DNA of 64,000 nucleotides from a virus. Lineage: Duplodnaviria > Heunggongvirae > Uroviricota > Caudoviricetes. The DNA lies in IMG/VR virus record IMGVR_UViG_2687453454_000003, positions 1,823 to 65,822 of that record, one strand, 5' to 3'. The translations under genes and the position numbers were made by a program. Every line of letters starts with the position of its first letter. Within the stretch, counting starts at the first letter, position 1. Positions 16,009 through 62,632 of the stretch are shown one piece after another. Below the pieces are notes generated by a model. That model was not told where the DNA came from and ran no database searches. It saw only the letters and a program-made list of their open reading frames with translations.

Positions 16009-16173
16009 TTGGGGGTACCTCCACTAAACCGAACAGCAAATACCCCCATAAGTACCCCCATCTGACCGTAGATTTTGAGGGACTTTAGTAGACGTCAAAA
16101 GACGAACGGGGCTTTAATACACGGATTATAAGGGGTTTTGAAAGACTTTAGTAGACTTGGGGAGATGTTTGAA

Positions 16174-16219
16174 TGGTGCCGATAATAGGAGTCGAACCTA
16201 CGACCTTCGCATTACGAAT
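16174..16219. repeat. att site: 46-bp perfect direct repeat of the tRNA-Thr 3' end (attR of prophage A; tRNA-proximal att of element B)
   Basis: tggtgccgataataggagtcgaacctacgaccttcgcattacgaat is identical at 16174-16219 and 62557-62602; identity ends where the intact tRNA continues. Confidence 0.9.
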
Positions 16220-16642
16220 TATAAGAATCCGCTTCTAATTCAAAGCATTACCCCATCAACACTGCGCTCACACGCCCCACCACATCAAAACATGTAAAGC
16301 CTTGCAAGCCATTGTGAGGCCTTATGTGTCTCAGTTTTGTCCCACCTTGTATTATGACTTGCATAGCCACTGAAGATAAACGTGACGACAAACAGCGCAG
16401 CAGTCTTCTTTTCTTTCACACTTTCCCCAATCAGCATACATACCTTCTACCATAACTGTAGTGAATGTCTGTTATGAGCGAGGGGCGGAAGTTCGGAATG
16501 CATACTTACTTCGATGTGTGTTAAGCAATGGGGGCAGGTCGGCAATTTATTGTAAAAGCGATAACACTAACAGCATTAGTGAAGAGGCTAAAGATTTGTT
16601 TAGAACCCGCCCCCTTAAGAGGCGGTATTCTTGGCAAACATT

Positions 16643-19600
16643 TTATTTACTGTTTATCAATTGCAATAATGGGATCTCAGCTACATCACTAGGAATATAG
16701 GGGTCATCTTCTTTTAAATTAACCCCAATACAATCAACATCATTTAACCCAATTTCCCAAGCCCACCTAACATCTAACGTACTCATTTCTATCCCTAAAC
16801 TATCTCTTTGTGGATGCTCAGGAACAATATTTTTTAACATCGCATCACATCCAAGATAGAATTTTCCACAGGCCTGATACGCAGCAAGAAATCTTTCTAA
16901 ATTGACGTTACTATCAGGAGTCATCGTATTAATTCTACTGATCATTGTCATTCTTTTAGTTAATGGCGTTGTCATCATATTTTCAGATATCAGCACTCTA
17001 TAATGATTTGGGTTTTTAACTGAAATACCCTTGACAATACAAACCCGTAATCTGGCTTTACTATCTACCAAGCCTACTGATGATATAAGATCTTTAAAAA
17101 TATCCTCACCTATATTGGGGTGTTTAAATAATAGATATAACCCTGGATAACACGATTTTAATTGAGCGAAGCCTACTCCTTGCCAGCGTGTTCTATCCCA
17201 TAGACGAGGCTTGATTAGACTTTGTATTGAATAATCTTTATGCGTTATATTTTCGGAATTAAGTTCCTCTTCAGGCATTATTCCTTTACCAGGTGTTGGA
17301 ACATTTACATCCTCGATCTCCAACACTTTCGGAAATTCACTATCCCAGGGTTTATCTCTTAAAAGAGGGTAAGTTTTCTTTTCAGCACTGGTGGAATAAA
17401 TTTTCTTAATTTGTTGATCAATATCATTTCCAAGAACATTTTCAATAGCTTTGATACAGGCACCGAAACTAATTGCTCTGTCAAATGCAGCATCTTCGAA
17501 TATCATTCTTTCAATGTATTCTGTATTTTTTGTAAAAAATAACTCAGGGAGAAGATCAAATACTATTTTCTTGAATTCATTAGTAATTTTTTGTTGAGCA
17601 TCGACTCTAAATGAACTTGTTTCAAAACCATTGCAATTTATAGTAAGGTTTAGTTTTCCATTATTGCTATTTATTTCATGTGATAAGGAGAAGTCATCTT
17701 CATCATCTGCTATTACTTCAATAATTAAAAATGCTTCTTTCAGATGGATGTTATCAATCGTACAAGTTGCAAAAGCACTCTCTAAAAGCGCTAAGATACT
17801 AGTTGAAAACTCTATAAATGGTGACCGATTCGGAAAGTTAATTTCTATAGTGCATCCAAAAATAAAAGATGTATATATTCCTCGTTTATCATAGTTATCT
17901 TTTATTCCTTTACTATTGAATCCAGCATCAAAGTCACGTATTTCTTGCAAGAAATCATTATGATCTTTATCGGCAGTAACTTCATACTCATGTTCAAAAT
18001 TTTCAATATAACCTAAAGCATATTTAAGACATCCAGATGATACAAAAAGACCTAATCTATCGAGTTCATCGGGAATATTACTCTGTCGATTTATTCCATT
18101 TAGGTCAGTGTTCAAAATGAGTTGACTTATGTAAAAATCAACTTGCTGATTTTCTTTATCGCCGAACGAACTTTCACTGATATTTTGGTTAATTATTAAA
18201 AACAGTTCATACCATAAAAGAGCATGTGCTAATTTCCCTAGTTTTATTTCTGCCAGGCATAAACTATAATAAATCTCAGCCTGCTTTAATGATATCTCAT
18301 CATACTTCCAGTAGTTATCTGTAATCAAAGAAGCGGATAGAAGCAAGCATGAACGTGAACTCCATAGCAACCCAATGGATTCGTAAGCATAAGCAATAGC
18401 TTTTAATGCTAATATAAATTTATCTCGTGATTCCTCTTTATAGAGTGGTATAAATGATTTTCCTAAATACTTGATTGCCTGATAAGGGTGACCATTTTGA
18501 ATCCTCTTTATACCTCTTCGTAGATTTAATAATGCCCCTTTAACTTCACCACCTCTAACAGCAGATTGCTCAGTCATATAGTCTAATAAATTTTCATATG
18601 CATCTACCTCGAAAAAAATGTCATCCAGTTCGTTCAAAAGTTGGAAGTTCTTCTCAAAGGAATAGCCTATTAAATTCCCACTATTTTTAAAAATTTCATG
18701 TAACTCTTCAAATACAACCGAAGCATCTTCTACATCTGAAAACGTTGTCAATTTATAAATAGCTTTGTGAGTTCTCGCTGTGAGTGCATTACTGGGACGT
18801 GATTCATCGTCAGCTATCTCATCTAGTTTAGCAAGCATGTTACGTTCAATATTCTCAATATCGATTGTAGATGTTGCGTTGTTAAGTCTAATATAACTTT
18901 TATGAACGGTTACTAAATTTAAAACTTTCTCCCATTTTGAGGAATTAGTTGATGATGCAATACTTTCATATGCAAATTGAAGATTTTCTTCAAAGAGATT
19001 AAAATCTTCCATCCAAAAATGAGACTTCCAGGCATATTGATAATACGCATCTAGCAATTGTTGATTAGTCCCGAATTTCTTTGATATTTTTATAGCTCTT
19101 TCAAATAGACCTTGTGTTTCAATTAGTGGTTTCTCAAGTTCAGCGCTTAACTCTGCAATTTCTAAAAAAATATCCACCTGTTCATATGAAATTTCAGCAG
19201 GGTTTATTTTCTCTCTAATATACTCGGTTAACTCTTCATATTTTTTATGCTTTTTATAATCATTTTCTCCAAAAATAACTTCTCTTTTATATTGCGTTGG
19301 AACTGACAATGAATCAATGGCCAATTGCTCAAAATTATTTTTGTAAATTTGATCTAATAGCCAATTAATATCTAATATACGAACATCTATTCCAGTTTTT
19401 GTTTTTAGTGTATCCTCAACCTCTGAACGAATATTGGACTTTGCAGACTGGTTCGTTACGCAAAATACTTTAGCATACCCACGTTCTGTTTCTTTTATCT
19501 TAAGTACATCTTCATGGCATTTTTTCTTCCAGTCTTTACGTGTACTTACCGCAAAGGCCCAGCGTTCTCTATTTGATGCTTCATTAACGCCTTCGAACCA

Positions 19601-19894
19601 AAGAAGCTTATTCTGTTCTGAAACAGGGAATGTTTGTGTGTCAGTTTTACCATCCCCCCCTGCTACAGGGCCAGTTTGTTCAAGGAGATTAGGGCAAATT
19701 ATTTTTTCACATATTTTTTTTGCAAAATCTTCGAATTGTAGTTCTTGATTTCTTGTATTTAGCGTAGAGAGGAAGTGTTCCAGTACAACTCTGTCTAAAG
19801 TACCAGTCTCTCTGATTGTTGAATCAGAAAATTTTTCAGGGCGACGGCGCCTTAGAAATTCTTTAGATGAAAATTTGGTTTTCTGTACATTCAT
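16643..19894 (-). CDS. large hypothetical protein (1083 aa), AT-rich cargo; N-terminal domain of unknown type, central TPR-like helical repeats, C-terminal domain
   Basis: ORF track; ATG at 19894 preceded by AGAGGAG SD; much lower GC than the tail genes; no P-loop, HKD or HEPN motif found by eye; helical-repeat-like segments (AYYQYAWKSHFW, ALKAIAYAYESIGLLW, EIYYSLCLAEIKLGKLAHALLWY). Confidence 0.6.
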   Translation of the reverse strand: MNVQKTKFSSKEFLRRRRPEKFSDSTIRETGTLDRVVLEHFLSTLNTRNQELQFEDFAKKICEKIICPNLLEQTGPVAGGDGKTDTQTFPVSEQNKLLWFEGVNEASNRERWAFAVSTRKDWKKKCHEDVLKIKETERGYAKVFCVTNQSAKSNIRSEVEDTLKTKTGIDVRILDINWLLDQIYKNNFEQLAIDSLSVPTQYKREVIFGENDYKKHKKYEELTEYIREKINPAEISYEQVDIFLEIAELSAELEKPLIETQGLFERAIKISKKFGTNQQLLDAYYQYAWKSHFWMEDFNLFEENLQFAYESIASSTNSSKWEKVLNLVTVHKSYIRLNNATSTIDIENIERNMLAKLDEIADDESRPSNALTARTHKAIYKLTTFSDVEDASVVFEELHEIFKNSGNLIGYSFEKNFQLLNELDDIFFEVDAYENLLDYMTEQSAVRGGEVKGALLNLRRGIKRIQNGHPYQAIKYLGKSFIPLYKEESRDKFILALKAIAYAYESIGLLWSSRSCLLLSASLITDNYWKYDEISLKQAEIYYSLCLAEIKLGKLAHALLWYELFLIINQNISESSFGDKENQQVDFYISQLILNTDLNGINRQSNIPDELDRLGLFVSSGCLKYALGYIENFEHEYEVTADKDHNDFLQEIRDFDAGFNSKGIKDNYDKRGIYTSFIFGCTIEINFPNRSPFIEFSTSILALLESAFATCTIDNIHLKEAFLIIEVIADDEDDFSLSHEINSNNGKLNLTINCNGFETSSFRVDAQQKITNEFKKIVFDLLPELFFTKNTEYIERMIFEDAAFDRAISFGACIKAIENVLGNDIDQQIKKIYSTSAEKKTYPLLRDKPWDSEFPKVLEIEDVNVPTPGKGIMPEEELNSENITHKDYSIQSLIKPRLWDRTRWQGVGFAQLKSCYPGLYLLFKHPNIGEDIFKDLISSVGLVDSKARLRVCIVKGISVKNPNHYRVLISENMMTTPLTKRMTMISRINTMTPDSNVNLERFLAAYQACGKFYLGCDAMLKNIVPEHPQRDSLGIEMSTLDVRWAWEIGLNDVDCIGVNLKEDDPYIPSDVAEIPLLQLINSK

Positions 19895-19956
19895 GATTTT
19901 GACGCTCCTCTTGCTATCGACAATAAACCTTTGTATGCATCAACTAGATTTATTGT

Positions 19957-20300
19957 TCATACTGCCTTTTTTTGAAGAAAAAATTGCGGAAGTCTATTTC
20001 TAGACAAGCTATCTATGTATTCACTATACCACTGCATCATCTGTTGTCTCCCTTCCAAATACTGTGCATGATTGTAAGCCCCGAGAATAGCGTTCTTATC
20101 CACATGTGCAAGTTGTGTTTCGAAACATGCAGAGTTGAATCCTTCTTCGTGCAGAATGGTACTCATTGTGTGACGAAAACCATGCCCCGTCAGCCTTCCT
20201 TTTTATCCTAATAGCTCAATTACCTGATTAATGCTTTCCTTTGAGATCGGCTTAGTACGATCATCACGTCCAATGAATACTATCGGATAGATGCACCTAA
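19957..20300 (-). pseudogene. integrase gene fragment (C-terminal about 115 codons of a P4-type integrase, with in-frame stop)
   Basis: Translation ...IGRDDRTKPISKESINQVIELLG*KGRLTGHGFRHTMSTILHEEGFNSACFETQLAHVDKNAILGAYNHAQYLEGRQQMMQWY aligns with the C-terminus of the 14794-16008 integrase (PGRNDPRKTMSEASINQVFKRIGYAGRVTGHGFRHTMSTILHEQGYN...); TAA replaces the Tyr codon; no N-terminal part. Confidence 0.7.
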
Positions 20301-20526
20301 TCTTATAACATCGTGTTTTCTATGTCCGTTCCTGGCACATAGCAGTCCTAGAGACAGTGGCGTAAAGTCATGGAGGATCGGTGGGAGGAGGCGCTAATCC
20401 TTTCATACAAAAATATGTAAAATCAATAACGGCTGTAAATCATTCAATACTCGCACTATCGGAAGTTCACCAGCCAGCCGCAGCACGTTATTGCATACAA
20501 CGTGTATGCGGCGTATCTCAAAACGA

Positions 20527-62542: not shown

Positions 62543-62556
62543 CTTATTGATTTAAA

Positions 62557-62632
62557 TGGTGCCGATAATAGGAGTCGAACCTACGACCTTCGCATTACGA
62601 ATGCGCTGCTCTACCAACTGAGCTATATCGGC
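62557..62632 (-). tRNA. thrW: tRNA-Thr (anticodon CGU), thrW-type; its 3' 46 nt form the attachment-site core
   Basis: RC reads GCCGATATAGCTCAGTTGGTAGAGCAGCGCATTCGTAATGCGAAGGTCGTAGGTTCGACTCCTATTATCGGCACCA: 7-bp acceptor stem, D-loop, anticodon loop uuCGUaa, T-loop GGTTCGACTCC, 3' CCA. Confidence 0.95.

Follow-up and report, generated by a model that had tools for sequence, protein, structure and literature searches.

A predicted Mrr-like nuclease–TPR protein carried beside an integrase remnant in an Escherichia coli thrW prophage array, a candidate stand-alone anti-phage defence protein

A large AT-rich ORF beside an integrase remnant in a thrW prophage array of Escherichia coli is probably the gene of a phage-defence protein that works on its own and belongs to a family not described before, in which a predicted nuclease effector is joined to a proposed TPR and C-terminal sensor with no NTPase. 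The window, by which we mean the whole 64,000-nucleotide stretch of DNA that was analysed, matches E. coli strain 6409 (NZ_CP010371) at 100% identity. The ORF (16643-19894, minus strand, ATG start) is an intact single-gene unit of 1083 aa, and its product, WP_039268304.1, carries the RefSeq label 'hypothetical protein'.

In the mechanism that we propose, the N-terminal divergent Mrr-like PD-(D/E)xK nuclease (aa ~45-200) would be the effector, and the TPR-like solenoid together with the C-terminal alpha/beta region would act as sensor and regulator (Table 1). The nuclease would be kept inactive in the uninfected cell until a trigger of phage origin, most probably a protein, engages the TPR/C-terminal part, after which either autoinhibition would be lifted or the protein would oligomerise. 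The active-site loop (E55, D81, K83, D85, S117, K125) would then become ordered and DNA would be cut, with destruction of the phage DNA or abortion of the infection as the outcome. Nuclease activity, a sensor role, a trigger of this nature and a defence phenotype are what we infer for the protein.

Table 1 Features of the ORF and its surroundings, in window positions
Feature	Position	Strand	Remarks
att core repeat, copy of the 3' part of tRNA-Thr thrW	16172..16219		Identical to 62555-62602
Swappable int'-ORF module (remnant islet)	16482..20321		blastn break points versus E. coli EC4
C-terminal alpha/beta region, proposed sensor/regulatory part	16646..17929	-	aa 656-1083
Central all-helical TPR-like solenoid, without NTPase module	17930..19264	-	aa 211-655
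N-terminal domain, divergent Mrr-like PD-(D/E)xK nuclease fold (predicted), proposed effector	19265..19894	-	aa 1-210
Conserved Gly/Asp loop (TGPVAGGDGKTDTQTFPVSEQ...), putative active-site loop	19604..19675	-	aa 74-97; includes D81, K83, D85
Shine-Dalgarno AGAGGAG	19905..19911	-	Reverse complement read off the sequence; 10 nt upstream of the ATG at 19892-19894
3' stump of a P4-type tyrosine integrase	19957..20289	-	69-aa ORF 19957-20166; RefSeq 333-bp pseudogene

Predicted architecture and putative active site

Structure prediction of WP_039268304.1 (pLDDT 85.5) gives a protein of three parts. The N-domain is predicted to have the alpha-beta-beta-beta-alpha-beta core of the restriction-endonuclease fold, and in structural searches it comes closest to the catalytic domains of AspBHI and MspJI and to domains of the Mrr type, those of LlaBIII and AF1548 among them. 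On the model it is a divergent Mrr-like PD-(D/E)xK domain, in which nuclease activity would reside at aa ~45-200. The original prediction had proposed a nuclease-like N-domain of ~170 aa; such a fold is indeed predicted, and the domain extends to about residue 210. A sequence-profile link to any nuclease family was not found: Pfam, NCBIfam, PHROGs and PADLOC gave no match above noise (Pfam Mrr_cat included), either for the entire protein or for any of 19 N-domains scanned individually, neither phmmer nor profile searches of the PDB sequences found anything for the whole protein or for its N- and C-domains, and hhalign of the N-domain profile (Neff only 1.9) against EcoKMrr returned a probability of 0.06. 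SMEK_N appeared in 2 of the 19 N-domains at E 0.06, which is unusable.

The putative active site was paired by eye with that of EcoKMrr, matching RFE with QFE55, GDGGID with GD81-G-K83-T-D85, VQAKRW with S117-T-R-xx-W122 and TTSGF with VTNQ. The catalytic signature of the superfamily comprises an E in helix 1, a D before strand 2 and (D/E/Q/S)xK in strand 3. The putative signature residues assigned in this way (E55, D81, D85 and S117) are invariant, with low pLDDT in the loop (<50 for aa 74-97 in both models). The loop, the by-eye counterpart of GDGGID, has T74, G75, P76, G79, G80, D81, K83, D85 and V91 invariant in 18 sequences from several phyla. Distant homologues carry the canonical S-x-K (S-[AC]-K) at positions 117-119. 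The window protein and the rest of its gammaproteobacterial clade have S-T-[R/Q/N] there, the canonical (S/Q/E)xK Lys being replaced (R119 in the window protein), so catalysis would need K83 or K125, both invariant and candidates to stand in for that Lys, or would be altered.

These structural matches also bear on the alternative that survives best, although we consider it unlikely: a Type IV or other DNA-sensing restriction enzyme, whose C-terminal alpha/beta domains would read modified or foreign DNA directly and whose Mrr-like domain would cut it, so that neither a trigger protein nor abortive infection would be involved. AspBHI and MspJI are modification-dependent, the single-gene layout is typical of Type IV enzymes, and there is neither an NTPase nor a methyltransferase partner. 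Compared with the known enzymes Mrr, MspJI and AspBHI, the clade of WP_039268304.1 has R, Q or N in place of the QxK/SxK lysine and contains a TPR solenoid, which is no part of that family; a DNA-modification reader domain (SRA-like or winged helix) was not recognised in the protein.

The middle of the protein is all helical in the AF2 model, residues 207 to 671 being free of beta strands, in line with the TPR-like helical repeats that had been read from the sequence. The absence of a P-loop, likewise claimed before, holds: there is no Walker A motif, and the only GK[TV] motif is G82-K83 in the REase-fold loop, where V77 is not the [AG] of the Walker position and residue 84 is T or V. The predicted structure is thus one with no NTPase. 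A separate C-terminal domain had been put at ~300 aa; it is present, at a size of about 430 aa, as subdomains at ~665-835 and ~885-1083 with a disordered linker between them. This alpha/beta region matched no recognised fold, a comparison of the N, C1 and C2 regions with one another by hhalign gave no internal duplication, and Pfam, NCBIfam, PHROGs and PADLOC returned nothing above noise for the full protein, 15 C-domains and 7 cross-phylum homologues.

Family, distribution and genomic neighbourhoods

Sequence searches show a large family of fixed architecture in several phyla. Representative clusters at 50% identity match in 1073 cases, 443 of them at E<=1e-30 (hence at least 443 strong clusters), the length is constant at about 1085 aa across >760 full-length homologues, and each of the 150 matches listed has the N-domain at the N-terminus or no further than about 85 residues from it. 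Mean pairwise identity is 0.67-0.73 in the N-domain, 0.47 in the TPR part, 0.41 in C1 and 0.43 in C2, which points to a conserved effector part, a variable sensor part and a fast-evolving C-terminal alpha/beta region. The family is under purifying selection, with dN/dS values of 0.147 and 0.132 (about 0.14). A cluster at >=90% identity spans E. coli, Salmonella, Klebsiella, Enterobacter and Cronobacter, and the gene is present in only 23 of the 5426 complete genomes of E. coli. Most homologues reside on plasmids, transposons and chromosomal islands and not in prophages. Phage carriage was rejected, given that the only match in INPHARED, itself unverified, sits among neighbours that resemble those of a conjugative transposon.

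In at least 9 unrelated contexts, known or candidate defence genes lie no more than 10 kb away (a qualitative count with no background statistic), a recurrent co-location with defence systems on variable or mobile DNA. The neighbours are SIR2 with a HerA-like gene, and AbiH, in V. parahaemolyticus; AIPR; TerB/BrxCD-like/DEAD with a kinase in Citrobacter; a RelA_SpoT toxin-like gene in Serratia; RES with BrnT inside an int-DUF6387-primase satellite in Microbulbifer; AbiEii (AbiE) with a NACHT protein on a Nostoc plasmid; an S8 peptidase with an AAA ATPase on a Burkholderia plasmid; DUF1837 with a helicase, that is, Hachiman, on a Sphingobium plasmid; and, at IMG/VR loci, PD-T4-6, pAgo with SIR2, and PDC-S01/S15/S65. 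A kinase partner was considered and discarded: the flanking kinases are barely interrelated, lie on opposite sides and are of the PD-T4-6 type, and none is present in the window.

An independent machine-learning prediction exists in Table S10 of DefensePredictor, where cluster_id WP_039268304.1 (1083 aa) has a mean log-odds of 8.44 versus a cut-off of 4 and the label 'Predicted novel defense gene' (DeWeirdt et al., Science 2026, PMC13092281). The overall validation rate in that study was 45% of 94 units tested (PMC13092281). The entry consists of a score only, with a weak TPR match (q_cov 0.16) as its domain content. The family is absent from the protein sequences in the supplements, validated set included (PMC13092281), and a literature search on the accession and on nuclease-TPR proteins gave no match. 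The original prediction had left the choice between an anti-phage gene and a toxin; the defence neighbours in many unrelated genomes and the DefensePredictor cluster support the former in silico, and the latter, with no conserved adjacent antitoxin or immunity gene, is kept as a low-weight rival.

In its wider form this rival, which we judge very unlikely, makes the gene a weapon or maintenance factor of a mobile element, either a toxin/addiction-type nuclease or a means of satellite-versus-helper interference, that serves the islet and not the host. The gene is always on mobile DNA, be it beside integrases, in satellite-like int-DUF6387-primase elements, on plasmids beside ParAB, in a Tn7-like element or, in one lineage, among PAAR-DUF4225 effector genes. 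Defence systems themselves typically ride on such mobile elements (Rousset 2022, PMC9122126), and therefore the mobile context does not discriminate. In at least 3 E. coli lineages the gene is broken, by IS903B, by IS1 and by a frameshift; such repeated inactivation suggests a cost and fits either a costly defence gene or dispensable cargo. Against a weapon or addiction factor, the neighbours vary in every context, and the protein is without a secretion or PAAR-type delivery domain.

Still less likely is a catalytically dead nuclease fold in a non-defence scaffold or regulator, for example a DNA- or protein-binding TPR protein with a housekeeping or accessory role. The canonical Lys missing at 119 in the window clade and the lack of a profile match to active nuclease families would fit such a protein. 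However, E55, D81, K83, D85, S117, K125 and D129 are invariant across homologues at only 25-30% identity and the N-domain is the most conserved part, which argues for a constrained active site, and a housekeeping role is opposed by the patchy accessory distribution, the foreign GC content and the defence neighbourhoods.

Relation to known defence systems

WP_039268304.1 shares with Avs/AVAST the layout of an N-terminal effector followed by a C-terminal repeat sensor, here the Mrr-like N-domain and the TPR-like solenoid. Unlike Avs4 (antiviral STAND NTPase type 4; PDB 8dgf), it is without a STAND/P-loop NTPase module, the part that bears the Walker A and B motifs in Avs/AVAST, and it has an extra ~430-aa alpha/beta C-terminal region. 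Sequence similarity to Avs4 is undetectable and the PADLOC AVAST models gave no match. Closer in logic is Upx (Gao_Upx; PDB 9wuf), likewise a large single NTPase-less protein with a big sensor region and a divergent PD-(D/E)xK domain (a putative nuclease in our case), although the domain order is opposite, Upx having its sensor at the N-terminus and its PD-(D/E)xK at the C-terminus. Homology to UpxA was not detected, with no PADLOC match and no PDB-chain sequence match even though 9wuf is in the library. Phage terminase is what the Upx sensor detects, and defence is lost when the ExK motif is mutated (bioRxiv 10.64898/2026.04.30.721860). Upx defends without an NTPase, and therefore the NTPase-less logic proposed here is one that works.

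More tentatively, WP_039268304.1 might be the founding member of a widespread NTPase-less class of immune receptors, in which the TPR solenoid and a bipartite alpha/beta domain not seen before would sense some phage component that is conserved and would directly activate a rewired nuclease of the Mrr type, its catalytic lysine moved into the invariant GGD-G-K-x-D loop. This reading places the class in Pseudomonadota, Bacillota, Cyanobacteriota and probably Bacteroidota. If true, it would be a third route, beside Avs and Upx, that couples protein pattern recognition to DNA cleavage without ATP. Confirmation of the defence role would turn at least 443 strong 50%-identity clusters, labelled 'hypothetical' or 'TPR protein', into a defence system of defined identity, its active site clear and open to mutation. 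Pattern-recognition immunity without a STAND ATPase would gain an example, which would bear on how oligomerisation or activation comes about in minimal ancestors or derivatives of NLR-like receptors. A new sensor fold would be gained as well, and existing co-expression screens could identify its trigger.

The ORF in the thrW prophage array

The ORF has a GC of 0.334 and a GC3 of 0.242, compared with a GC of 0.485 for the whole window, 0.477 for tfa and 0.532 for stf, and a GC3 of 0.42-0.45 in tfa and stf. Its composition is therefore clearly set apart from that of the prophage, as expected of the AT-rich cargo gene that had been predicted; the ORF is present and uninterrupted, with its strand corrected to minus, and the strong AGAGGAG Shine-Dalgarno is seen ahead of it. 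Promoter-like sites around it are no more frequent than in shuffled sequence, and the terminator scanner called none downstream, where there is only a 5-bp GC hairpin. That the gene, directly after stf-tfa, encodes a structural or tail-associated phage protein such as an alternative fibre or receptor-binding protein has next to no probability and was refuted, given the integrase stump between ORF and tfa, the lack of any PHROGs match or virion-protein fold (the folds being nuclease and TPR), the deviating GC3 and the location of most homologues outside prophages.

Both flanking features named in the original prediction are real. The decayed P4-type integrase fragment corresponds to a RefSeq pseudogene flagged 'internal stop, missing N-terminus', its DNA matches that of the 3' end of a complete 391-aa integrase (locus L003) at 92.7% identity, and it is kept beside the ORF in 20 of 23 listed E. 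coli copies (missing in H21-H23). On the other flank, the 48-nt thrW att repeat is the distal boundary of the array segment that contains prophage and islet; a copy of the repeat is formed by the 3' part of tRNA-Thr(CGU), a minus-strand gene at 62557-62632 and the sole tRNA of the window.

Homology to E. coli EC4 breaks at 16481/16482 and 20321/20322 (blastn), with flanks common to both strains and an unrelated 476-aa gene in the EC4 slot, and a 93%-identical copy of the ORF lies elsewhere behind an intact integrase at tRNA-SeC as the same int-ORF pair. By these sequence comparisons the int'-ORF block is an exchangeable module and not prophage core, in keeping with the proposal of islet or hotspot cargo nested in the prophage end; as to exact insert boundaries, what the related strain delimits is a strain-variable module. 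The gene is mobile cargo, here probably the leftover of a small integrase-borne islet that a deletion has joined to a lambdoid prophage of the thrW array, at its tail-fibre end. For E. coli genomics, the tail-fibre-proximal end of thrW prophage arrays would then be a cargo-swap site at which integrative-islet remnants persist. We limit the claim to 'integrase-proximal island cargo'. A strict P4 psu-int hotspot was rejected, the intact island at L003 being of the AlpA/YfjJ type with no Psu seen, and the accession was not found in the supplements of Rousset 2022 (PMC9122126). A truncated P4-family primase can come after E. coli copies of the ORF.

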